From Pyrodictium abyssi (lineage in GTDB: Archaea; Thermoproteota; Thermoprotei_A; Sulfolobales; Pyrodictiaceae): DNA of 32,000 nt. The stretch spans positions 900,001-932,000 of the forward strand of contig NZ_AP028907.1 in assembly GCF_036323395.1 (NCBI RefSeq), in the 5' to 3' direction. The position numbers and the translations under genes were made by a program. Shown piece after piece: positions 1,932-17,858 of the stretch (position 1 is the first letter of the stretch; the number at the start of each line of letters is the position of its first letter). Below the pieces are notes generated by a model. It had not been told where the DNA came from. It was given only the letters and a program-made list of their open reading frames with translations, and did no database searches.

Positions 1932-2034
1932 TACAGTGTCGCCTCCAGTGCGACGTCGGCGTACAGGACCCGCCTGGTCTGATGCATACTAGCCTCTGGA
2001 CGGGCGGCTAAGGAGGCTTCTACACAGCAGAGGT

Positions 2035-2598
2035 CTATATGCAGACGCCGCGCCGGTGGTGTGCACGAGAGTAGATAGCACATGGAGGTGCTACCATTAC
2101 AGCGGCATAGCCTAGCGAGCGATGTACACGTACTACTTTGACGAGCACTAGTATATCGGGGTTGTCCAGGTCCACTGGTAGATCTATGTTCTCAGCTATA
2201 GCCTCTATAGCCTCCCTCTTGTGCAGCAGTTTACCCGTCTCTCTATCGTAGAGCCTGCCCTCGAGCCTTATCGCGAAGCTAGCGCCCTCATCGGCCTTAG
2301 ACATGAGCAGGTCCTTCACGACAGCGGCTACGTAATCGACATACGGGGAAACCTCTAGGTCTATAGGCACAGCCCGCAGTATTACGCTGTCATCGGGAAC
2401 TCCTCTTGCTATGCGTCTCACGGCATCGTATGGATCCTCGACCTTTAGCAGTAGTAGCGAGCGGGGTGCGTCAAACAGCCTGGCCCGTCCAATGATGCTC
2501 TCTATCTCGCGTAGAGCCTTTCTCATGGAGTGGTATCCTGGCTCGTGGGCTACTATGAGGTTAAAGAGTCTATAGCGGGGTACATCCTCGGTCGTCAT
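2035..2598 (-). CDS. THUMP-domain protein (stand-alone, predicted RNA-binding)
   Basis: 187 aa. The central and C-terminal pattern SFAIRLEGRLYDRETGKLLHKREAIEAIAENIDLPVDLDNPDILVLVKVV matches the THUMP signature (f.v...R......s.e.....g..i....vdL.nPd..i.vei) as I remember it. No catalytic domain is attached. Confidence 0.55.
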   Translation of the reverse strand: MTTEDVPRYRLFNLIVAHEPGYHSMRKALREIESIIGRARLFDAPRSLLLLKVEDPYDAVRRIARGVPDDSVILRAVPIDLEVSPYVDYVAAVVKDLLMSKADEGASFAIRLEGRLYDRETGKLLHKREAIEAIAENIDLPVDLDNPDILVLVKVVRVHRSLGYAAVMVAPPCAIYSRAHHRRGVCI

Positions 2599-2701
2599 GC
2601 CGCTAGCTCCTCCGTGCTAGTGTATGCAAGCGCGCTGGTAGAGCGGCTGCACGCCTAAGGGCGGCTGCTTGTCTCCCCTTTTCTGAGGCTCGGCCCCAGG
2701 T

Positions 2702-3853
2702 TCACCTCCTTAGAGGCCTAACGACTGTCCGCATCTTTGTGACGGTCTCTATCCACACTGAAGCCACGTCCGCGAGACGCTTGTCACCCACACACTCAAC
2801 GTACACCATGTTTCGCTTCACCCTTGCCCGAGCCCTTCTACAGCCGAGAACCTCAGCAGCCTCTGCTACCTCGTTGTCCTCGGGAGGCTCTAGAGTCGAG
2901 CCACATGGCCCCCATTTGCACGCCCAGCACGCTAGTCTGTGAGCGACTATGTTGGCGGAGCAGCTACTCGGCAGCACTGCCAGGCCGTAGCGTCTGGCCA
3001 CTCTAGCGGCCAGCTCCTTCAAGTCGGTCTCGCGTATAGTGACCTGGTCGCGGCCACCTCGGGGAGGTCTTGGTAGACGCCTCTCTATGAGCGTAGTGTC
3101 CACGATTCTAGAGGCACGTAGCCTGCGTAGGATACCGTGTGTGACCCTCAGGCTGCCAGGAACCATTGTGCGTATACCAGCGTCCCTAGCTCTCCGCATT
3201 ATGTCGTCCAGCTCTCTGTCGGTAACGCCGGGTAATATGGGGCGTAGGAACAGCGTGACGCTGACCCCTCTACGTGCTAGCTCGCTAGCGAATTGGAATC
3301 TCTCCTCGGGACTAGGAGCTCCCGGCTCAAGCACTGAGGCATAGCGTATAGTAGTCATCGATAATAGTACGCTTATCCTGGGGTCGGCCTTCTTTGTGAA
3401 ATCCTCCAGGTACTCGCCGCTCAGAATCGACTTTGTAGATATCTGCTGCGGATTGCCGAGATAGCGCCATGTAGCCTCCAAGTACTCTAGCGCCTTCTCT
3501 ACGGTAGCCTCCATGAAGGGCTCTGTGACAGAGCCAAAGGCTAGTAGTGTCCCAGAGCTACCTGGCACGAAGTAGGGGTTTGTGAGCAGCGCGTATACTA
3601 GCTGTAGGCCAGAGAGCGGATAAGGGGCTGGCTTCAGTGGGAACCCCATCTCCGGCACATAGCAGTAGAGGCAGCCAAAGTTGCAGCCGATGCCAGTATG
3701 GATAGTCATGCCGCATGGGATGGGCCGGCGGCGGGTATGATGGTCTCTACGCGCCTCTCGGAGCTCTTCCTCGTCGAGCTTAGACTCTATGCTGGCTGCC
3801 AGCCTCTGTTTTTCGGCTAGGAGTATCTCCACGAGTCTCGCAAGTTTCTTCAA
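2702..3853 (-). CDS. Radical SAM protein (SplB/COG1533-like architecture)
   Basis: 383 aa with the canonical CxxxCxxC cluster GIGCNFGCLYCYVPE near the N-terminus. There is an additional C-terminal Cys-rich stretch, SSCSANIVAHRLACWACKWGPCGS. Confidence 0.7.
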   Translation of the reverse strand: MKKLARLVEILLAEKQRLAASIESKLDEEELREARRDHHTRRRPIPCGMTIHTGIGCNFGCLYCYVPEMGFPLKPAPYPLSGLQLVYALLTNPYFVPGSSGTLLAFGSVTEPFMEATVEKALEYLEATWRYLGNPQQISTKSILSGEYLEDFTKKADPRISVLLSMTTIRYASVLEPGAPSPEERFQFASELARRGVSVTLFLRPILPGVTDRELDDIMRRARDAGIRTMVPGSLRVTHGILRRLRASRIVDTTLIERRLPRPPRGGRDQVTIRETDLKELAARVARRYGLAVLPSSCSANIVAHRLACWACKWGPCGSTLEPPEDNEVAEAAEVLGCRRARARVKRNMVYVECVGDKRLADVASVWIETVTKMRTVVRPLRR

Positions 3854-3911: not shown

Positions 3912-5393
3912 ATGGAAGTTATTGTGTCCCAGAGCTTCAGCGTGATAGAATGGCGGGGTAAACCAGCGATACGTGTGCGGAATACGCTAGGCCAGCGACT
4001 GGAGGAGTTCAAGCCGCTAGAACCCGGGATAGTGCGCATGTATGTGTGCGGCCCGACGGTCTACGACTACACGCACATAGGTCACGCAAGGACATACGTG
4101 GCGTTCGACGCTATAAAGCGGTACCTTATGCTACGCGGCTACCACGTTATACATGTACAGAACATAACAGACATCGACGACAAGATAATCAATAGGGCTC
4201 AGCGCGAGGGTAGAGACTGGCGCGAGATAGTAGACGAGTATAGCCGCGACTACTTCGACATGCTGAAGAAGCTCAACATAAAGGTCCACATCCATCCACG
4301 CGTAACAGACCACATAAAGGAGATAATAGACTTCATACAAGGCCTCATAGACAAGGGCTATGCCTACGTAGCCCCGAGCGGCAGCGTATACTTCGACGTA
4401 GACGCCTTCCCCGACTACGGCAAGCTTAGTGGCCGATTCCACCCAGAAGACTGGCGGCAAGAAGAAGACGTACTACGCGAGAAGAAGAACCCCTACGACT
4501 TCGCCCTATGGAAGGCCTGGAAACCAGGCGAACCATACTGGGAGGCACCTTGGGGCCGCGGGAGACCCGGCTGGCACATAGAGTGTAGCGTAATGTCCTC
4601 GAGATACCTTGGAGGCCAGTTCGACATACACGGCGGCGGCCAGGACCTAGTATTCCCCCACCACGAGAACGAGAGAGCACAGAGCGAGGCATACTTCGGC
4701 AAAAGGCCCTGGGTCAAGTACTGGCTCCATACCGGGTATCTCACGATACACGGCGAGAAGATGAGTAAAAGCCTGGGCAACATAATACCGTTCCGCGAGG
4801 CAGCGAAGAAGTGGAACCCCCGCGTGCTGCGCATGTGGCTCCTAAGCGCGCATTATCGCACACAGCTAGACTTTAGCGAAGAAGCGCTAGCACAGGCAGA
4901 GGCGAATCTGCGCAGAATACGTGGAGCTGTATCAGAGCTGGCCCGTGTAATAGACGAGGCATCGCCTAGAGGCAGGCTAGACGACGACGAGGTAAAGACT
5001 GTGGAAGAAGTAGCAAAAGCCTACCTAGAGTTCCACGAGGCCATGAGCAACGACTTCAACACGGCGAAGGCACTCGCATCAGTATTAAGGCTCACTAGGA
5101 TAGTGAACAGCGCTATAATACCGGGCGAGTACTACACAGCAGGCATCCTCGCGCTACGACTCTACGAGGAGTTCAACACGGTATTCAGCGTCATAGACGA
5201 CATACTCTATGGTACAGCTGCACCTGGAGGCGAGATAGCAGAGAAGCTAATAGAACTGATAGTATCGGTACGCCAGGAGCTAAGAAAGCGAAGAATATAC
5301 GACGTAGCCGACAGTATACGCTCGGAACTCTCACAGCTAGGCATACGGCTCTACGACCATCCAGGCGGAAAGACAACTTGGCGCATAGAGTAG
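3912..5393 (+). CDS. cysS: Cysteinyl-tRNA synthetase
   Basis: 493 aa with NTLG..EEFKP...[22 protein letters not shown] (HIGH motif), WHIECS, and [11 protein letters not shown] (KMSKS motif). This is the class I CysRS layout. Confidence 0.95.
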
Positions 5394-5434
5394 GAACAAG
5401 TGGTAAACAAATAGCCGCAACCAGAGGGCGATTT

Positions 5435-6037
5435 CTAGCGTGAGTCGGGCGTGTTGTAATCCTGAGCAACGTCGCGGGTACCGCTCTTTCTTATCCTTTC
5501 AAGGGCCTGGTGGAGAAGCTTACCCCTGTCAAGAGGCTCTAGGCTTTGATCAGAAATGCCCCTTACATAGATATAGAAGGTCCTCTGCCATGAACGCTGC
5601 AGCTCGTACGTGGTAATGGGATTCCATCCTGGAACCGGGAAATCGAGCGACACGACTATGGCGCCGGGTTTCAGTTCAGATTCTAGCTTTGGACGGAGCT
5701 TCTGGTTAACACTAGTAAGCAGATACATGTACACTATGTCAGCGTCTCCAAGCGGTATCTTGAAGAAATCCGCCTCTATAACCTCTACACGGTCAGCGAG
5801 GCCGCGCTCCCTGACAACTTGCCGAGCCCTCTCAGCAAGGTCACTTCTCAGCTCAACGCATCTTACACGTATGTGGGGGAATGCCTCTGCCAGGGCTACT
5901 GCTACACGGCCATCGCCACAGCCTATATCGTAGATTATGTCGCCCCTCTTGGGCCTCAGTATAGAAACTAGGCTCCTTATCACCTCGTCTCGCGTTGGAA
6001 CCCACGGCACCGACGGCTGATAACCATACCCTATCAT
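5435..6037 (-). CDS. Class I SAM-dependent methyltransferase
   Basis: 200 aa. Motif I is IIYDIGCGDGRVAVALA, followed by an acidic residue at the end of beta-2 (RCVELRSD) and ADIVYMY. Convergent with cysS. Confidence 0.7.
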   Translation of the reverse strand: MIGYGYQPSVPWVPTRDEVIRSLVSILRPKRGDIIYDIGCGDGRVAVALAEAFPHIRVRCVELRSDLAERARQVVRERGLADRVEVIEADFFKIPLGDADIVYMYLLTSVNQKLRPKLESELKPGAIVVSLDFPVPGWNPITTYELQRSWQRTFYIYVRGISDQSLEPLDRGKLLHQALERIRKSGTRDVAQDYNTPDSR

Positions 6038-6224
6038 GATCTTATGCCTCCGGCGAGTACTCTACAGGGGGTGTACGCCACACTGTGCTGCAGCCAGGCG
6101 CCCAATAGGCTTAGAGACGCAGGGCTAGAGATTATATTCAGCTACGCCTGGCACCCACTACTAACGAGACTAGCCTTATTAGCGTCACTTTAGCACCTAC
6201 CACGCCAACAGTACTGGGGGCATA

Positions 6225-10705: not shown

Positions 10706-12703
10706 TTGCCAGAGCAGCCGTCAAGGAAAGTATACGAGTCGGCGCCCCAGCGTGTGCTAGCCAGAGCAGTAGCAGCGGTGCTCGAGCAGCAGGGAGTAGA
10801 GCTAAGCCAGCAAGAGCGCCAACAGATAGAATACATAGTGGCCGAGTCCCCGAGGCCAGAGCTAGGAGACTATGGGATACCACTAGCGAGGTATGCGAAG
10901 CGCTACAGAATAAACATGGATAAGTTCTTCGAGGAGGCATCAGTCCTGCTTACGAGAGAGCCCATTGTGGCCGAAGCTAAGCGTGTCGGGGGCTACCTCA
11001 ACATAGCGATAGACGCTGCGAACGCAGCAAGGCTTGTCTTCGAGGCAGTCCGCCTTGAGGGGTTTGACTACGGCCGCGTAAAGACCGATAAGCCGGAGAG
11101 AATAGTAGTAGAGCATACCAGTGCTAACCCTGTACACCCCCTCCACATAGGCCACGCGAGGAATGCTAGCCTCGGCGACGCCCTGGCACGTTTACTCCGT
11201 GCGCGGGGCCACATAGTCCAGACACGGTTCTACATAAACGACATGGGGCGCCAGGTAGCAGTACTAGCCTACGGCTACATAGCCGCCGGCCTAGACAAGC
11301 CGCCCGAGGGTGTGAAGCCCGACCACTGGATAGGCCTAGTCTACGCGATAACACACACACTGGCCGACATAGAGGAGCTGAAGAAGAAGCTGGAGCAGCT
11401 CAAGAAGGAGGAGAAGTACGACGAGTACCGCCAGCTCCTCCGCGAGCTCGACGAGCTAGTAGCGGTAGCCTCTAGGCTGAGAGAGCGCGACCCAGAACTC
11501 TTCGGGCGGATAGCTGACGCCATAAAGGGCAGCGACCCTGCTGCAGAGATTTCGAAGCTGATGCAGATCTACGAGTACCGCCGCGACCCCGAGAAGGTCG
11601 AGCTGTTCCGCAGAGTAGTAGAGCTATGCCTTCAGGGCTTCCGCGAGACACTCTCAAGGCTCGGCATAGAGATAGAGAAGTGGGACTGGGAGAGCGAGCT
11701 AGCATGGACCAGCATGGTCTCCAAGATACTCGAGCAAGCCCGCCGTAGCCCCTACGCCACGGTGCACAAGGGTGCTCTCGCCCTAAACCTGCAGCCCTTG
11801 CTCCGCGACCCAGTAGTCCGGGAACGGCTAGGCCTATCCGAGGACTACGAGGTGCCGCCACTAATACTCCAGAGGAGTGATGGTACGACGCTCTACACTA
11901 CCAGGGACATAGCCTACAGCATCAAGAAGTTCAGGGAGTTCAACGCCGACCGTGTATTCAACGTGATAGCGGCGGAGCAGAGGCTGGAACAGCTACAGGT
12001 AAGGCTAGCACTCATAGCGCTCGGGTACCGCCGCGAAGGGCTAAACCTGGTGCACTACGCCTACGAGATAGTAAACCTCCCTGGCCAGAAGATGAGCGGC
12101 CGCCGCGGCCGCTACATAACCCTCGACGAGCTAATAGACCAAGCAGTGGCGATAGCCCGCCAGGAGGTAGAGAAGCGGAGCCCAGACCTACCCGAAGAGG
12201 AGAAACAAAGGATAGCCGAGGCAGTAGGTACAGCAGCGGTACGCTACACCCTAGTATCAGTATCCGCGCCAAAGCCCATGACCTTCAACATCGACGAGGC
12301 GCTAAACTTTGACCGGAACAGTGCCCCCTACATACTATACACACACGCCCGCGCAGCCAGCATACTATCGAAGGCCCGCGAGCGCGGCATACAGCTAGAC
12401 TGGAACAGCATAGACTACAGCGCAGCTAGCGAGAACCAGCTCCGCCGCAGCCTGGTGATCCAAGCCCTAGTCTACCCCTACGTCTTCGCCAAGGCGGCCG
12501 ACGAGCAGCGCCCAGAACTGATAGTAGCCTACCTCAACAGGCTAGCAGACACCTTCAACAAGTGGTACACCAGCGGCGATAACGCCGTCAACGAGCCGGA
12601 CAGAAGAAAGCAAATGTTCAAACTAGCGCTAGTATACACAGTCAAGCAGATACTCGCGAACGCCCTAGACCTGCTAGGCATAAAAGCAATAGACCGGATG
12701 TAA
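10706..12703 (+). CDS. argS: Arginyl-tRNA synthetase
   Basis: 665 aa. It has VVEHTSANPVHPLHIGHARNASLGD (HIGH), LPGQKMSGRRGRYITLDEL (the ArgRS variant of KMSKS) and the anticodon-binding tail PYILYTHARAASIL. The TTG start at 10706 is uncertain. Confidence 0.93.
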   Translation: MPEQPSRKVYESAPQRVLARAVAAVLEQQGVELSQQERQQIEYIVAESPRPELGDYGIPLARYAKRYRINMDKFFEEASVLLTREPIVAEAKRVGGYLNIAIDAANAARLVFEAVRLEGFDYGRVKTDKPERIVVEHTSANPVHPLHIGHARNASLGDALARLLRARGHIVQTRFYINDMGRQVAVLAYGYIAAGLDKPPEGVKPDHWIGLVYAITHTLADIEELKKKLEQLKKEEKYDEYRQLLRELDELVAVASRLRERDPELFGRIADAIKGSDPAAEISKLMQIYEYRRDPEKVELFRRVVELCLQGFRETLSRLGIEIEKWDWESELAWTSMVSKILEQARRSPYATVHKGALALNLQPLLRDPVVRERLGLSEDYEVPPLILQRSDGTTLYTTRDIAYSIKKFREFNADRVFNVIAAEQRLEQLQVRLALIALGYRREGLNLVHYAYEIVNLPGQKMSGRRGRYITLDELIDQAVAIARQEVEKRSPDLPEEEKQRIAEAVGTAAVRYTLVSVSAPKPMTFNIDEALNFDRNSAPYILYTHARAASILSKARERGIQLDWNSIDYSAASENQLRRSLVIQALVYPYVFAKAADEQRPELIVAYLNRLADTFNKWYTSGDNAVNEPDRRKQMFKLALVYTVKQILANALDLLGIKAIDRM

Positions 12704-12737: not shown

Positions 12738-12815
12738 GGGCCCGTAGCCTAGCTAGGATAGGGCGCCGGCCTTCGGAGCCGGAGGTCCGGGGTTCAAATC
12801 CCCGCGGGCCCGCCA
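12738..12815 (+). tRNA. tRNA-Arg, anticodon TCG, with genomically encoded CCA
   Basis: Hand-folded cloverleaf. Acceptor is GGGCCCG/CGGGCCC. D-arm is GCCT-AGCTAGGATA-GGGC. Anticodon arm is CCGGC-CTTCGGA-GCCGG, with positions 34-36 reading TCG and G37. Variable loop is AGGTC. T-arm is CGGGG-TTCAAAT-CCCCG. Discriminator is G, followed by CCA. It lies 34 nt downstream of the argS stop. Confidence 0.9.
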
Positions 12816-12880
12816 CACTTATAAAACCCACCATCGCCGGTAGGATAACCCTTATAAGTTTTCTCCGGTGTTTCAGCTTC

Positions 12881-13621
12881 TTGGAGCAGGCTGAAACATC
12901 AAAAGTGGTATTCATGTCTGACAAGCAGGAGTGGTGGGAGACCGTTGATCCGGCCAAGCTCGGCGAGGATGTACGATACCGTATCCTAGTCCGTGTTGTC
13001 GAAAAGTATGGCCGTAAGAGGGTTCGCGAGGAGACGGGTATTAGTAGGGTCACCTTGTGGAGACTCATTGAGAGGAAGAGCCCAGTCAAGCCAGAGTACG
13101 TTAAGCCACTACTAAAGCTGCTATCGAGAGAAGAATTTGAAGAACTGGTATCGACAAGGGAGAAGCTTAAGGCCCTAGGCATACTAAGAGATGATGGAAC
13201 TATAGACTATAGCCTCGCCCTAGAGATACTAGCAGTAGCCAAGGACGACGAGTACCTCAAGAACGCGCTGCTAAGGTTCGTTGTCCAGGAGTTCCGGGAA
13301 GACCTCAAGAAGATGCTCGGGATAAGCTTCGCTGGAATAGTGTTGCAGTGGACGGAAGACTTTGAACAGTTTCTTGCTGAGCGTAAGAAGCGTAGAAAGG
13401 TGAAGGACCCAGAAACCCTAAAGTATTACAGAAGCTTGTTCATGAAGTACCTCGAGGGAAAGGAGCTATCCGAGGAGCTTATCGACTACGTTGTAAGCCA
13501 TCCCAACAAGTGGCTAAGGAACGTGTTCAGGCACTACATCCAGTACCTGTACTATAGGAGGAAGATTAGTCCAGAGACATTCGGGTGGATAATGGAGGTA
13601 GTACCGTACAAGAAGTTATAG
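12881..13621 (+). CDS. Integrase, N-terminal (HTH/DNA-binding) portion; probably the 5' part of a frameshifted integrase gene
   Basis: 246-aa ORF whose first ATG is at 12914 (MSDKQEWWETV...). An HTH-like segment is present (RVREETGISRVTLWRLIERK). The ORF ends at TAG 13619..13621, and the catalytic domain continues in the +1 frame from 13602/13629. Confidence 0.55.
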   Translation: MEQAETSKVVFMSDKQEWWETVDPAKLGEDVRYRILVRVVEKYGRKRVREETGISRVTLWRLIERKSPVKPEYVKPLLKLLSREEFEELVSTREKLKALGILRDDGTIDYSLALEILAVAKDDEYLKNALLRFVVQEFREDLKKMLGISFAGIVLQWTEDFEQFLAERKKRRKVKDPETLKYYRSLFMKYLEGKELSEELIDYVVSHPNKWLRNVFRHYIQYLYYRRKISPETFGWIMEVVPYKKL

Positions 13622-13628
13622 GCTTGAT

Positions 13629-14210
13629 GTGAGACCCTACCCGATAGAGTTGGAGGATGTTAGGAAAATGCTTGAATACCTCAAGGACCGCCACAAGGTC
13701 TACTACACCGTTTATCGTGTTATGCTTGAGAGTGGTGCCAGGTTTGAGCACGTGCTCCGGATGATAGAGACGTGGAGCCCCAGGGAGAGGGTTGAGATAC
13801 CCGGCACTAACATCGTTACGAGGAGGCTCGTGTGCTTCGATGATAAAGGCTTCTGCCGCTACTACATGGGGCTAAGGGAGGGAACCAAGCCCTGCGAATG
13901 GGTGTACTTCTCAACGGAGACCCTGGAGTTGCTAGGCCAGGTCGCTCCCAGACATATCAACCGGCACCAGGTGAGGAAGTATGCTGAGAGGCATAATCTC
14001 GTACTACCGAAGTATATGAGGAAGGTCTCGTGGAGGCTAATGGTGAAAGCAATGAGCAGGGAGACCGCCAGATTCATACAGAGCCGCCTAGGAGAGCTGA
14101 GGATAAGTGAGGCACGCTACGAAGACCTCCTAAGCGAGGCAGACCAACAGTACCCAGCATACCTGAAGCTACTAGAGGAGACCCTATCACCATCTATAAG
14201 CAAAGTCTAG
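13629..14210 (+). CDS. Tyrosine recombinase catalytic domain (integrase C-terminal portion)
   Basis: 193 aa. By eye it shows LESGAR (box I Arg), TKPCEWVYF (beta-hairpin Lys), LPKYMRKVSWR (box II xxR), IQSRLGE (Arg at the His/Trp position, as I recall for SSV-type integrases), and SEARYEDL (candidate Tyr nucleophile). Confidence 0.6.
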   Translation: MRPYPIELEDVRKMLEYLKDRHKVYYTVYRVMLESGARFEHVLRMIETWSPRERVEIPGTNIVTRRLVCFDDKGFCRYYMGLREGTKPCEWVYFSTETLELLGQVAPRHINRHQVRKYAERHNLVLPKYMRKVSWRLMVKAMSRETARFIQSRLGELRISEARYEDLLSEADQQYPAYLKLLEETLSPSISKV

Positions 14211-14234
14211 AGAGGCTAGTTTACGGTATCAGGC

Positions 14235-14519
14235 TTACCCTATCCGCCTTTGGAACTTCTCGTATATCTCGTCCCGGTGCCCCACTGCGACTATGTAGAC
14301 GGTGTCACGGCTCGGGATGTAGCAGTAGATGAGGCGGTAGTCTCCTCTCCGGAGCTTGAAGCAGTATAGGCCCCTGAGGCTCGCCGGGAGGCGGAGCCTC
14401 TCGCCGATAAAGGGGTCTCTTTCCAGTTCCCCGACAGCCTCTAGAACCCACTCGACAACCTCCCTCGGCAATCGCTTCAAGTCGCGCCTTGCAGAACCCT
14501 CAATGCGGACCTCCGGCAA
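14235..14519 (-). CDS. RelE/ParE-family type II toxin
   Basis: 94 aa. The pattern SARRDLKRLPREVVEWVLEAVGELERDPFIGERL...LYCFKLRRGDYRLIYCYIPSRDTVYIVAVGHRDEIY is the classic RelE/ParE fold signature (a.kdl.kl.....i...i..l...P..g..l....yr.R.GdYRiiY.i......v.i..v.hR...Y). Confidence 0.75.
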   Translation of the reverse strand: MPEVRIEGSARRDLKRLPREVVEWVLEAVGELERDPFIGERLRLPASLRGLYCFKLRRGDYRLIYCYIPSRDTVYIVAVGHRDEIYEKFQRRIG

Positions 14520-14558
14520 CCCCGGCAGAACCCCGAGACGCTCAGTGCGAGGTATGGC

Positions 14559-14792
14559 TTAGGGGCTACGTTTTCCCTCCTCCCTCTTCTTCTCGCGTAG
14601 AATCTCCTCGACAGCCTCTCTGGCTGGCTCCGTGCCTCGGTCGAGTAGTATATTCAGTGTCCTTTTTGCCAGCTCGCGGCGAAACTCCTCCCTATAGACA
14701 CCCTCCTCGTCACCCTCTGGAACCTCAACCTCCACCACAACCCTAACCCGGGACGCCCCCAGAGACACCCTCACACCACCATACCAGCGCAT
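14559..14792 (-). CDS. Putative cognate antitoxin (possibly RHH-like)
   Basis: The track ORF is 14559..14852 with a GTG start. An in-frame ATG at 14792 gives MRWYGGVRVSLGASRVRVVVEVEVPEGDEEGVYREEFRRELAKRTLNILLDRG.... It sits immediately upstream of the toxin (39-nt gap, same frame) and shows a short beta-strand followed by a helix pattern. Assigned by position only. Confidence 0.4.
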   Translation of the reverse strand: MRWYGGVRVSLGASRVRVVVEVEVPEGDEEGVYREEFRRELAKRTLNILLDRGTEPAREAVEEILREKKREEGKRSP

Positions 14793-14950
14793 GCAGATAG
14801 CCACCGCATCACCGCTCCCAACATCATCGCTCCGCGGCGGCCGCCGTCCCACAGCCCCCCAAAGGGGCTCAACGGCGGCTAACCATTGCCTACTGTAGTA
14901 TGGCTCTATAGAGCTTTATTAAGGTTTCATCTGCCTAGCATTGTCTGTCT

Positions 14951-15964
14951 TCACTTCTTGCCCTGGATAAACTTCGTGAAGACTTCTATAGCGCTGGCTA
15001 GCGAGTGTGCACCAGCTTCTCTTGCTAGCTTGATCATTTTGCTTGGTGTTATGATGTTTACGTTCAAGCCTTCACTACACATCTTCATGTTTTGCTCCTC
15101 AACTGCTTTACGTACTCTGGCCTTAAATTTGTCCTCCCACTCCTCGGTAACTTCATTGAACGTTATGGCTGCTACCTCTCTTACGCATACATCTCTGCCA
15201 ATCTCGTAGCTCCGGGTCTCCTCGTATAAAGGCTTCAGCTTCCCCGCGACGAGCTTCTCTGGGCTGAGCTTCCTAGGGTTTACCTTCACCTCTGCCAGAT
15301 GTAGCTTGACAACGCCGAACTCAACATCTCTGGCTATGAGGTCCAGCTCGGTGATCTTCTCGCCAGCTACCCTAGCCCAGCGCTTCTCGGCTAGACGCCA
15401 CGCACCACCCTTCACGACTGCTAGGAAGGCTATGGCAAGGGCCTCCGCTATGTAGCCAAGTCCATCCCTGCCGACCTGCCTTAACTCATCTTCTGTAAGC
15501 CCGTGCCTAGCAATACGGTCTGCTAACTGGCCATAAGCAGCCCCAAGGTCCCGAATAAGCAGCTGTAAAGTGAAGCCAAGGTCGGAGGCAAGATCCTCCA
15601 CTGCAAACCCTATGGTGCTTCTTAGAATCTCGGGGAGACGTTCAGACAGCTCCTCAGCTATAGGGGGAGGAACAGGGATAGGGAGTGCAAGAAGAATAGT
15701 CCTTCTCAGGCTAGCTAGTAGCGTCTCTAGACTAGGCACGCACTCATAGCTGCCCGCTAGCTCCTTGAGCTTAGCTAACAATGCCGTTAGAGACCTTGGC
15801 CTATACCCACCTCCATACGTTCGTGCAAGAAACTCTACATCCGCGACAACACTATCTACTAATTCAACGAACTCCGAGTAGGGTAGACATCCCTCCCTCC
15901 GGAGCTTTGTGAATAGTTCCTCTATTCGCTCCAGTCTCCTAATCCTATCTGTGAGCGCTTTCAC
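14951..15964 (-). CDS. Uncharacterised protein with a central PD-(D/E)xK (Hjc/YraN-like) nuclease core
   Basis: 337 aa. Residues about 167-228 (nt 15281..15466) read GLGYIAEALAIAFLAVVKGGAWRLAEKRWARVAGEKITELDLIARDVEFGVVKLHLAEVKV. This gives helix-Glu, then ...ELDLIA (Asp), then ...AEVK (ExK), as in YraN (GEIDLIA...vEVK) and Hjc. The N-terminal roughly 165 aa are helical or coiled. The C-terminal roughly 100 aa are unassigned. Confidence 0.5.
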   Translation of the reverse strand: MKALTDRIRRLERIEELFTKLRREGCLPYSEFVELVDSVVADVEFLARTYGGGYRPRSLTALLAKLKELAGSYECVPSLETLLASLRRTILLALPIPVPPPIAEELSERLPEILRSTIGFAVEDLASDLGFTLQLLIRDLGAAYGQLADRIARHGLTEDELRQVGRDGLGYIAEALAIAFLAVVKGGAWRLAEKRWARVAGEKITELDLIARDVEFGVVKLHLAEVKVNPRKLSPEKLVAGKLKPLYEETRSYEIGRDVCVREVAAITFNEVTEEWEDKFKARVRKAVEEQNMKMCSEGLNVNIITPSKMIKLAREAGAHSLASAIEVFTKFIQGKK

Positions 15965-15971
15965 GTCAAAG

Positions 15972-16520
15972 CTAGCGAGCAGAGCTACCTCCCCATAATC
16001 TAGGGATTATTTTGGTAAGCTTATGTACTTGCTCTGGGCTTAGTCTCACATAGCCGGCCCTGTAGAGGGAGTAGATTACCGGGTACTTCAGATGCATGAA
16101 GACCTCGGCTATAGATTTATCATTCTCGGCTTTCTCCTCCACTAAGTGCCTCCATGTTGGTATGTTGTACTTCTCCCCGTAGCGTAGGTTATACTCAAGC
16201 TTCTCGACGTAGTCTTCTAGGCTCTTCTCTGGATCGGGGTACTCCTTCAGACACTTCTTCAACCACTCAACGGCCTCCTCCTTGGTTACTAGGGGTGGTA
16301 GCTTTCCATCCCTGGTTTTCGGACCCTTGATTGCTACTGGTAGTACTGCCCAACAAAACGCTAGCCTTCCATCGGGTATGGGTATCTTCTCCTTGACAAG
16401 CACCTCAACCCATCCAAATCCTTCTAGCCTAGCATCGTATTCTATCTCCCCGAGGATGGGATCAACAGCTCTTCTCCACTCGGATATTGTAAGAGTTTTC
16501 AATGGTTTTCGCTTCGGCAA
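15972..16520 (-). CDS. Hypothetical protein, first gene of a two-gene cassette
   Basis: 182-aa ORF with a TTG start and no upstream ATG/GTG in frame. It ends 7 nt before the start of 14951..15964 on the same strand. I recognise no motif. Confidence 0.5.
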   Translation of the reverse strand: MPKRKPLKTLTISEWRRAVDPILGEIEYDARLEGFGWVEVLVKEKIPIPDGRLAFCWAVLPVAIKGPKTRDGKLPPLVTKEEAVEWLKKCLKEYPDPEKSLEDYVEKLEYNLRYGEKYNIPTWRHLVEEKAENDKSIAEVFMHLKYPVIYSLYRAGYVRLSPEQVHKLTKIIPRLWGGSSAR

Positions 16521-16609
16521 CTCGATGTTTAGCCTGAGGTCTGACTCCTCTAGCGCTAGGAAGAAGCCTAGTACCCTCAGATACTTCTCTGGATTTACTA
16601 TCCTACCCC

Positions 16610-16847
16610 AGGGACGTGCCTAAAGTTATTGAGCTATCCAGGAAGATGTACAGGAAAATTAAACAGAAATCTAATATGGGCAACAGTGTATAGCGCATTC
16701 GCTATACCGGCTGCTGCAGGAGCATTCTACGGTATGGGGTTCCTACTGCCTCCAGCTCTAGGAGCGTTGTTCATGTCGCTAAGCACTGTGATTGTGGCAG
16801 TAAATGCTAGCCTATCTAAGATAACATTCTACGCTCCACCAATATAG
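16610..16847 (+). pseudogene. copA: 3'-terminal remnant of a heavy-metal (CopA-type) P1B-ATPase gene, carrying an internal +1 frameshift
   Basis: The frame from 16610 reads RDVPKVIELSRKMYRKIKQ. After one extra A at about 16667 the next frame reads NLIWATVYSAFAIPAAAGAFYGMGFLLPPALGALFMSLSTVIVAVNASL...*. Together these match the last two TM helices of CopA-type pumps (DLRDV..AI.LSRKT..KIKQNL.WA..YN...IP.AAG........P..A..AM..SSV.VV.NS). The roughly 700 upstream codons of such a gene are absent. Confidence 0.75.
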
Positions 16848-17156: not shown

Positions 17157-17858
17157 ATGAAGCGGCTTCTACCTGTACTCGGCATACTAGCCTTCATGGT
17201 AGTAATTGGTGATGCCGCCCTCCATGCAAGCTCGATGAGCAACGGCGCTCCCCAGCTGAACTGTGTCCAGTGCCACGTAGGCGCAGATAAGAATCCTGCA
17301 GAGCTAGTAATTGAGGGACTCCCCGAGAAGTATGGGCCAGGCAAGACCTACAAGATAACAGTCAAGATAACAAAGGGTCCCGACTGCAGTGGCGGTGTTG
17401 CCTGTGGCGGCTTTGCAGTGCAGGTTAACGCTGGCGAGCTCGTGGTAACAGACGAAAAGAACACATTCATATCCACGACGCCAACTGGCGAGAAGCTACT
17501 AACACACACCAAGGATGGCTCTATGCTGCGCGAGTGGACCTTTGAGTGGAAGGCCCCCGACAAGCCTGAGCCGGTAACATTCAAGATAGCCGTAATTGCT
17601 GCCAATGGCGACGGTAGCTTCAACGGCGATGCCTATGCGTTTAAGGAGATAAGCATTGAGCCGACCAGTGGTGAGCAGGCGCAGACCCAAACACCGACAG
17701 TAACAACCAAGGTAGTCACCGAGACAAAGACCTCTACAACGGTTACAACAACACCGGCTGGCACCGTAAAGGAGCACAATACAGCAATGGCTATCGGCGT
17801 GGCAATAGTGGTGTTCATAATAGTAGTTGGCGGCTATCTAATGCTGACAAGGAAGTAG
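17157..17858 (+). CDS. Membrane-anchored monohaem c-type cytochrome (signal peptide, CxxCH, beta-rich ectodomain, Thr-rich stalk, C-terminal TM helix)
   Basis: 233 aa. The Sec-type signal is MKRLLPVLGILAFMVVIGDAALHA. There is a single haem-c motif, CVQCH (aa 36-40, nt 17262..17276). The Thr-rich linker is QTQTPTVTTKVVTETKTSTTVTTTP (nt about 17679..17768). The hydrophobic anchor is MAIGVAIVVFIIVVGGYLML, followed by TRK. Confidence 0.75.
   Translation: MKRLLPVLGILAFMVVIGDAALHASSMSNGAPQLNCVQCHVGADKNPAELVIEGLPEKYGPGKTYKITVKITKGPDCSGGVACGGFAVQVNAGELVVTDEKNTFISTTPTGEKLLTHTKDGSMLREWTFEWKAPDKPEPVTFKIAVIAANGDGSFNGDAYAFKEISIEPTSGEQAQTQTPTVTTKVVTETKTSTTVTTTPAGTVKEHNTAMAIGVAIVVFIIVVGGYLMLTRK

Follow-up and report, generated by a model that had tools for sequence, protein, structure and literature searches.

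A divergent PD-(D/E)xK-fold protein as cargo of a probably decayed tRNA-Arg-integrated element in Pyrodictium abyssi

Introduction

Nucleases of the PD-(D/E)xK superfamily are built around an alpha-beta-beta-beta-alpha-beta core, with an acidic residue in strand 2, a (D/E)xK motif in strand 3 and often a glutamate in helix 1. Within this superfamily, the Hjc and YraN (UPF0102) proteins are single domains of ~120–145 amino acids (aa) encoded by conserved chromosomal genes. Here we describe a 337-aa protein encoded on the chromosome of Pyrodictium abyssi, within a stretch of 32,000 nucleotides (nt) referred to below as the window (contig NZ_AP028907.1, positions 900,001 to 932,000); all coordinates are window positions unless a different locus is named. 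The C-terminal part of this protein has the same predicted core and the same arrangement of acidic and ExK residues. Its gene follows a 182-aa open reading frame (ORF), and a preliminary description of the locus, made from the sequence, had proposed that the two form a defence or element-maintenance cassette with an Hjc/YraN-type nuclease.

The likeness to Hjc and YraN consists of a short motif (xELDLIA ... AEVK) and the shared superfamily fold. Unlike them, the 337-aa protein has no match to PF01870 (Hjc) or PF02021 (UPF0102), is more than twice their size with an extra domain, and is encoded on the remnant of a mobile element. Its closest structural matches are the restriction-like endonuclease (RLE) domain of the R2 retrotransposon, the nuclease domains of Cdn1 and Card1, EcoO109I and the cleavage domain of FokI. 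The 337-aa family departs from the superfamily as described in having no profile-level similarity to its Pfam or PDB members, with Foldseek E-values only in the range of 1e-3 to 1e-2, in carrying a helical N-terminal domain of ~160 aa without detectable relatives, and in the replacement of the ExK lysine by glutamate in most of its distant members. A weak profile match over the nuclease core also connects the protein with PDC-M23A; however, the score is marginal, the N-terminal domain lies outside the match, and PDC-M23A is itself unvalidated, being a candidate by library naming.

The surrounding DNA is best compared with archaeal elements that integrate into tRNA genes, encode integrases of the SSV/pTN3 type ('Phage_integr_3') and have replication modules with primase and helicase. 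Shared traits are the tRNA target, a PF16795 integrase and an order in which replication genes are followed by variable cargo; a sibling element (locus L027) adds a DUF5906 helicase and a PriL-like protein. In contrast to those elements, the backbone proteins found here match neither Pfam nor virus collections, and the copy in the window is truncated and apparently immobilised.

Fold and conservation of the 337-aa protein

An AlphaFold2 model of residues 150–337, built from a deeper alignment, was confident (predicted local distance difference test, pLDDT, 89; predicted template modelling score, pTM, 0.84). It placed helices at residues 165–185, 235–253 and 274–290 and strands at 193–199, 203–215, 218–227, 258–268 and 301–305, with a core in the order alpha-beta-beta-beta-alpha-beta. 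E174 was located in helix 1, D208 in strand 2 (203–215), E225-x-K227 in strand 3 (218–227) and E263 in the strand formed by residues 258–268. The predicted PD-(D/E)xK-fold domain spans residues ~165–337 (about 14951–15472), while residues ~1–160 are conserved across the family and predicted to be helical.

Conservation was assessed in an alignment of 14 sequences of the 337-aa family, which included relatives at 23–28% identity. Eight positions were invariant (L169, A173, E174, L181, G187, W189, D208 and E225), and E263 (codon 15176–15178) was nearly so. The helix-E / D / ExK motif noticed in the preliminary description is therefore real and conserved, with E174, D208 and E225 unchanged in all 14 sequences, and the peptide strings quoted there do occur in the two proteins.

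Despite weak E-values, the list of PDB structures retrieved by Foldseek with the 150–337 model consisted mostly of PD-(D/E)xK nucleases. Matches included the R2 restriction-like endonuclease domain, Cdn1, Card1, EcoO109I, FokI and McrC, as well as the L endonucleases of arenaviruses and bunyaviruses, the Avs4 nuclease domain, AF1548 and BstEII. In the BFVD database, the best match had an E-value of 9.1e-4, and the entries retrieved included a 'PD-(D/E)XK nuclease superfamily protein' and a 'Restriction endonuclease'. No structure of Hjc, Hje or YraN appeared among the top 50 PDB matches. Together with the missing Pfam match and the additional ~160-aa N-terminal domain, this removes the earlier Hjc/YraN-type assignment.

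Among the defining features of the superfamily, the core fold was recovered in the model, and the strand-2 acid, the strand-3 (D/E)xK and the helix-1 glutamate in both the alignment and the model; a match to a curated sequence profile was not obtained. The conserved motif, the confident predicted fold and the nuclease-dominated structural list thus support the PD-(D/E)xK core proposed for this protein and its placement in the superfamily.

Several results weigh against this placement. The full-length AlphaFold2 model, based on a shallow alignment of six sequences, reached a pLDDT of 48 and was not taken into the fold search. In the PDB search with the 150–337 model, the best E-value was 2.7e-3, none was ≤1e-3, and template modelling scores (TM) were 0.3–0.4. 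No nuclease family in Pfam, NCBIfam or PHROGs was matched by the 337-aa protein at E ≤ 1, re-scanning of eight family members against Pfam gave no meaningful family, and searches of PDB sequences with the single sequence and with three profiles returned nothing relevant. Finally, the Pyrodictium clade and the relative P0022 retain K227, and the position is occupied by glutamate in seven of the eight distant relatives. Some restriction enzymes, BamHI among them, tolerate ExE at this site, but it is atypical.

The loss of the lysine also bears on whether the protein is an enzyme at all. A catalytically inactive protein of this fold, serving the element as a DNA-binding regulator or a structural protein, would suit the glutamate found at position 227 in most distant relatives, the lack of a sequence-level match to any nuclease family, and the presence among the BFVD matches of the RPB5 N-terminal domain, an inactivated PD-(D/E)xK domain. 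We consider such a protein improbable, as E174, D208 and E225 have stayed invariant over deep divergence, which is typical of retained metal-binding catalytic sites. For the 337-aa protein, we infer nuclease activity and DNA as the substrate.

A P. abyssi protein annotated as hypothetical shares 100% identity with the 337-aa protein, which has six close relatives at 74–100% identity in a set of 5.8 billion clustered proteins. An exhaustive HMMER profile search yielded seven matches at E ≤ 1e-3 among 1.84 billion cluster representatives. A second profile search produced 12 matches among the 5.8 billion proteins, five of them new and distant members (23–27% identity), and four more relatives were found in metagenome-assembled genomes (MAGs) of Desulfurococcales, Acidilobaceae and 'Ca. 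Culexmicrobium'. Although the superfamily is well known, the family represented by this protein is new and very rare. Among three full-length orthologues, the ratio of nonsynonymous to synonymous substitution rates (dN/dS) was 0.16–0.20, which indicates that the gene is real and under purifying selection.

In a search of PADLOC-DB v2 for known or candidate defence systems, the only match was a marginal one of PDC-M23A (profile positions 82–218 of 265) to residues 172–309 of the 337-aa protein (E = 6.4e-4, 16.8 bits), seen weakly in four of eight family members. The 182-aa ORF had no match.

Origin of the 182-aa ORF

The preliminary description treated the 182-aa ORF as a complete orphan gene. 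Some of its homologues are longer at the N-terminus (P0008, 311 aa; P0014, 288 aa), and a metagenome scan added 13 loci. Intact genes for proteins of 520–521 aa are present in three loci (L012 3853–5418, L013 489–2051 and L014 5495–7057). By tblastn, window positions 16610–16005 correspond to residues 316–519 of the intact 521-aa protein of L012 at 76% identity. The homology continues upstream of the listed TTG start as far as 16610, where it ends abruptly, and nothing further upstream was matched. Since the homology stops at a point equivalent to residue ~316 of the intact protein, no more than the final ~40% of the gene survives in the window. As judged from these alignments, the 182-aa ORF is what is left of the C-terminal end of a ~520-aa putative replication protein of the element; the feature, earlier bounded at 16520, extends to 16610.

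The N-terminal part of the intact ~520-aa proteins contains the conserved strings VPVAYDFIIDLDL (DFIIDLDL), SRGVQLR and IDTQVYD..R.TRLDLSIHSG. In the archaeo-eukaryotic primase (AEP) superfamily, motif I (DxD), motif II (sGxGxH-like) and motif III (D...R..R...S.H) follow one another in that order. By our own reading, the conserved strings may represent AEP motifs I–III, which makes a primase function of the ~520-aa protein a lead; the protein may be a highly divergent primase-polymerase. It gave weak PHROG matches to phrog_16345 ('primase', E = 6.1e-4) and phrog_18685 (E = 4.1e-4), and the family matched nothing with Pfam or PDB profiles. All of the AEP-like strings fall in the part deleted from the window.

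A weak PHROG match to an 'integrase' family (phrog_5127, E = 0.0019) prompted us to consider the 182-aa ORF as a split SSV-type Int(N) fragment. This idea was rejected because the ORF aligns end to end with the C-terminus of the ~520-aa protein and because the integrase N-terminus is already present beside the tRNA gene. Scanning of GTDB genomes with the 182-aa family gave no matches.

Distribution of the two genes

The preliminary description correctly reported two tightly spaced genes, 182 aa followed by 337 aa, separated by 7 nt (15965–15971) and co-directional on the minus strand. Comparison of fetched loci (L numbers), including loci from hydrothermal-vent metagenomes, showed that this type of adjacency occurs in the window, L003, L004 and L005, all belonging to one close element lineage. 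The ~520-aa gene was found without the nuclease gene at no fewer than 12 loci, and nuclease relatives without the ~520-aa gene at 10 loci or more. Given this distribution, the adjacency of the two genes is inherited synteny in one lineage and not an obligate functional pair.

These data essentially refute a two-gene defence cassette in which a 182-aa sensor would act with the 337-aa nuclease effector. The tight co-directional spacing, its repetition in L003, L004 and L005 and the weak PADLOC candidate match in the nuclease core speak for such a cassette. However, the presumed sensor of unknown fold is the 3' part of the ~520-aa gene, cut at a deletion junction, and has no PADLOC match, while each gene occurs many times without the other. 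The loci that share the pair are 76–84% identical descendants of one element and do not count as independent. Recurrence of the pair, whose absence elsewhere was to have spoken against the proposal, is hence confirmed without being independent evidence of a functional pair, and two intact genes co-inherited across unrelated backgrounds were not found. A stand-alone PD-(D/E)xK nuclease carried as element cargo is the plausible remainder of the original claim.

The contexts in which the distant relatives of the 337-aa protein are found are unrelated and have no neighbour in common. One of them, the 24%-identical P0023, follows a PriL-like gene and precedes an integrase that is 76–84% identical to that of the window (L027–L029). 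Near the others, neither replication genes nor an integrase gene are present; the nuclease relative in L033, for example, is located between a phosphoadenosine phosphosulfate (PAPS) reductase gene and the gene of ribosomal protein L2. An unannotated protein of ~434 aa without a Pfam match is encoded beside distant relatives in L010 (212–1516, minus strand), L025 (145–846, minus strand) and L032, which carries the gene twice (2030–3283, minus strand; 4841–6112, plus strand). It was not found beside the nuclease genes of the Pyrodictium clade and may function in mobility or as a partner of that nuclease subfamily.

Patchy, solitary occurrence in the unrelated contexts of the Desulfurococcales, Acidilobaceae and Ca. 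Culexmicrobium MAGs, and presence or absence of the gene among otherwise syntenic elements, would be expected of a selfish, independently mobile endonuclease gene of the homing type that inserts into elements and chromosomes. On balance, we find this quite improbable. Neither flanking repeats nor a disrupted target gene were observed, there is no intein or intron context, and inside the element lineage the gene keeps a consistent position with the toxin–antitoxin (TA) pair.

Element family and its variable cargo

The compared loci outline an apparently undescribed family of integrative elements of Pyrodictium-like archaea from hydrothermal-vent metagenomes. Its gene order comprises a ~450-aa protein (minus strand), a ~320–360-aa protein (plus strand), a replication module, variable cargo and a convergent integrase gene. 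Members include L012 (1615–5418), L014 (491–7057), L023, L022, L001 and L027 (3820–13101). The ~450-aa backbone protein, 54% identical between L014 and L027, has a weak winged helix-turn-helix (wHTH) match (PadR/MarR).

The replication module exists in two versions. The first encodes the ~700-aa and ~520-aa proteins, and the second, in L027–L029, a DUF5906 helicase and a PF04104 PriL-like protein. The PriL-like protein of L027 showed no relationship to the ~520-aa family by hhalign, nor did the L027 helicase to the ~700-aa protein by BLASTP; the two modules are therefore not detectably homologous. None of the backbone proteins (~450, ~320–360, ~700 and ~520 aa) had a match in Pfam or in phage and virus collections. 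Likewise, tblastn against the GenBank phage/virus collection with the nuclease, ~520-aa and ~450-aa proteins gave no match, a search of IMG/VR viral contigs with the 337-aa and 182-aa families returned nothing, and no papers were found on Pyrodictium integrated elements or PDC-M23. The alternative of ordinary viral cargo, allowed for in the preliminary description, comes close to the actual situation.

The cargo slot differs between elements. In the window, L003 and L005 it holds the 337-aa gene, the antitoxin gene and parE. L006 has lost the replication genes and retains a 5'-truncated 337-aa gene with the TA pair. At the same position, L007 and L008 carry an N6_N4 methyltransferase and a Tsp45I restriction enzyme, L014 an N6_N4 methyltransferase (E = 3.4e-48), L013 a topoisomerase-like gene and an N6 methyltransferase, and L012 and L024 an unrelated 364-aa gene.

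The position of the 337-aa gene next to the replication module gives rise to the main competing explanation, that of an accessory nuclease for replication or recombination which would work with the primase-helicase module and have no part in defence. It might process replication intermediates, resolve concatemers or junctions, or help in excision or integration. In its favour, the gene begins 1–23 nt after the last replication gene in the window, L003 and L005, and the 24%-identical relative occupies the same slot after the non-homologous helicase and PriL-like module and before a similar integrase. Moreover, PD-(D/E)xK nucleases are well known as common components of archaeal viral and plasmid modules for replication and recombination. 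Against it, 12 or more elements that share the ~520-aa gene have other genes in place of the nuclease, distant relatives such as that in L033 lack replication or integrase neighbours, and L006 keeps its truncated nuclease gene and TA pair though its replication genes are gone. We regard an accessory role as somewhat unlikely, though a serious candidate.

Two further observations were made on these loci. The replication gene is frameshifted or truncated in L003 (700–2310), L020, L021 and L022, and L006 contains a damaged ~450-aa gene and the 5'-truncated nuclease gene (681–1569, 3078–3677); this damage in metagenomic copies suggests frequent decay of the elements, or assembly errors. In L027 and L028 (1–3735, minus strand), a complete type I restriction–modification (R-M) system (hsdR, hsdS, hsdM) is present immediately beyond the ~450-aa gene, at the end opposite the integrase.

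Decay of the element in the window

Beyond the replication-gene remnant lies an ORF that corresponds to the extreme C-terminus of the copper-exporting P-type ATPase CopA (residues 654–718 of 723 in 3j09_A; E = 1.6e-6, phmmer against PDB). The similarity to CopA starts at ORF residue 7 and covers the last ~66 codons of the gene, and the copA stub is on the strand opposite to the replication-gene stub. Two gene stubs that abut within ~35 nt are the signature of a deletion. The arrangement indicates that the deletion took most of copA, most of the integrated element and the right attachment site (attR). Neither a repeat search nor a search allowing three mismatches detected the tRNA 3' end as attR in the window.

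The integrase gene starts 66 nt downstream of tRNA-Arg. A frameshift at about 13606–13629 splits it into ORFs of 246 aa and 193 aa in different frames, and the 193-aa piece contains the catalytic domain (PF16795, E = 3.1e-23). Uninterrupted homologues are present in L027 (440 aa) and L005 (an ORF of at least 482 codons that runs into the contig edge); they are 75–84% identical to the two pieces in the window, and in both loci a tRNA-like sequence is found just upstream of the integrase gene. Either the split gene is a pseudogene or the P. abyssi assembly contains a sequencing error at this point. The frameshift, the absent attR and the abutting stubs together point to an integrated element that has decayed to a remnant, probably immobile, of which the window retains the integrase-proximal end at tRNA-Arg. 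The setting in a mobile element, with an integrase and a TA pair as neighbours, had been recognised in the preliminary description and was thereby confirmed.

Proposed role of the 337-aa protein

We propose that the product of the 337-aa gene is a DNA endonuclease that works on its own and probably depends on metal, in which a divergent PD-(D/E)xK domain is joined to a novel helical N-terminal domain that would provide substrate or signal specificity. The gene occupies the variable accessory slot between the replication genes of the element and its integrase, and the protein would act alone, to the benefit of the element, in exclusion, defence or maintenance. The 182-aa ORF was left behind by the deletion, in which the remainder of the element was lost together with attR and most of the host copA. 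For the structural and contextual parts of this proposal, our confidence is high. The account as a whole, with the decayed element, its nuclease cargo, the exclusion, defence or maintenance role and the 182-aa remnant, appears to us slightly better than an even bet.

The role in defence or maintenance, taken by itself, is tentative and in our view less likely than not. It was preferred because R-M genes occupy the same slot in sibling elements and because the family is patchy and solitary elsewhere. On the other side of the balance, its basis is position and neighbours, and the 24%-identical relative directly after the helicase and PriL-like module (L027–L029) fits a replication role equally well. 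A more far-reaching possibility, which we consider unlikely, is that of a single-gene immunity or exclusion system of hyperthermophilic Thermoproteota. Its N-terminal domain would sense foreign DNA or a cue of infection and license the nuclease, and the gene would be spread by uncharacterised tRNA-integrating elements among Pyrodictiaceae, Desulfurococcales and Acidilobaceae.

If the 337-aa protein is an active nuclease, it would represent a very rare, hyperthermophile-restricted branch of the PD-(D/E)xK superfamily with a novel N-terminal domain, and its interest could lie in thermostability as an enzyme or in archaeal exclusion or defence. What looked like a cassette of two genes is a product of the decay of the element. 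In addition, a family of integrative elements without annotation emerges from the comparison in Pyrodictium-like archaea; its uncharacterised backbone proteins include a putative primase without a Pfam match. None of these results overturns current understanding.

Organisation of the locus

The features of the region are listed in Table 1.

Table 1. Features of the P. abyssi locus and candidate catalytic codons of the 337-aa protein (window positions)
Feature	Position	Strand	Basis or remark
argS	10706–12703	+	
tRNA-Arg (TCG)	12738–12815	+	ARAGORN; integration target, left boundary of the element remnant
Tyrosine integrase, archaeal 'Phage_integr_3' type, frameshifted	12881–14210	+	246-aa ORF 12881–13621, 193-aa ORF 13629–14210
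ParE/RelE-superfamily toxin, 94 aa	14235–14519	-	PF05016, E = 2.2e-10; phrog_1213 'RelE-like toxin', E = 1.7e-11
Putative antitoxin, 97-aa ORF	14559–14852	-	Position directly upstream of ParE
337-aa protein, GTG start	14951–15964	-	Helical N-terminal domain and predicted PD-(D/E)xK-fold domain
Candidate catalytic codon K227	15284–15286	-	
Candidate catalytic codon E225	15290–15292	-	
Candidate catalytic codon D208	15341–15343	-	
Candidate catalytic codon E174	15443–15445	-	
Replication-gene remnant, last ~205 codons, 5'-truncated	15972–16610	-	tblastn against intact relatives
182-aa ORF, TTG start	15972–16520	-	Listed-start version of the replication-gene remnant
Deletion/rearrangement junction	16611–16646		Between the replication-gene remnant and the copA remnant
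copA 3'-terminal fragment, 72 codons	16629–16847	+	phmmer against PDB; host DNA beyond the junction

The pair of small genes directly downstream of the 337-aa gene on the same strand proved to be a TA pair of the RelE type, as first described. The toxin scored 41.4 bits against PF05016 (cut-off 23), and its gene is also kept in L003, L005 and L006. A small ORF is retained at the antitoxin position in the same three loci; that of the window had no domain match in the Pfam scan, and its assignment as the antitoxin is putative and based on position. Its true start is probably internal to the listed ORF, as the homologues are ~65 aa long. As the toxin scores above the curated cut-off of the profile and a small gene precedes it, the pair has the features of a type II ParE/RelE system.

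The GC content of 12816–16610 was 51.9%, compared with 54.3% for the whole window and 57.6% for argS. The low-GC island of the preliminary description is accordingly modestly low in GC, but the dip is neither uniform nor unique: the TA pair within it has 59–60% GC, and comparable dips occur elsewhere in the window.

Near the copA remnant, a 233-aa protein (17157–17858, plus strand) was noted. Its N-terminal segment resembles a signal or anchor, its C-terminus has a hydrophobic helix, and it also contains a CxxCH motif (NCVQCH) and a Thr-rich linker. A Reeler-domain match was borderline (E = 4.5e-4; 21.2 bits, with the cut-off at 21), and the protein may be a surface-anchored haem- or metal-binding protein.

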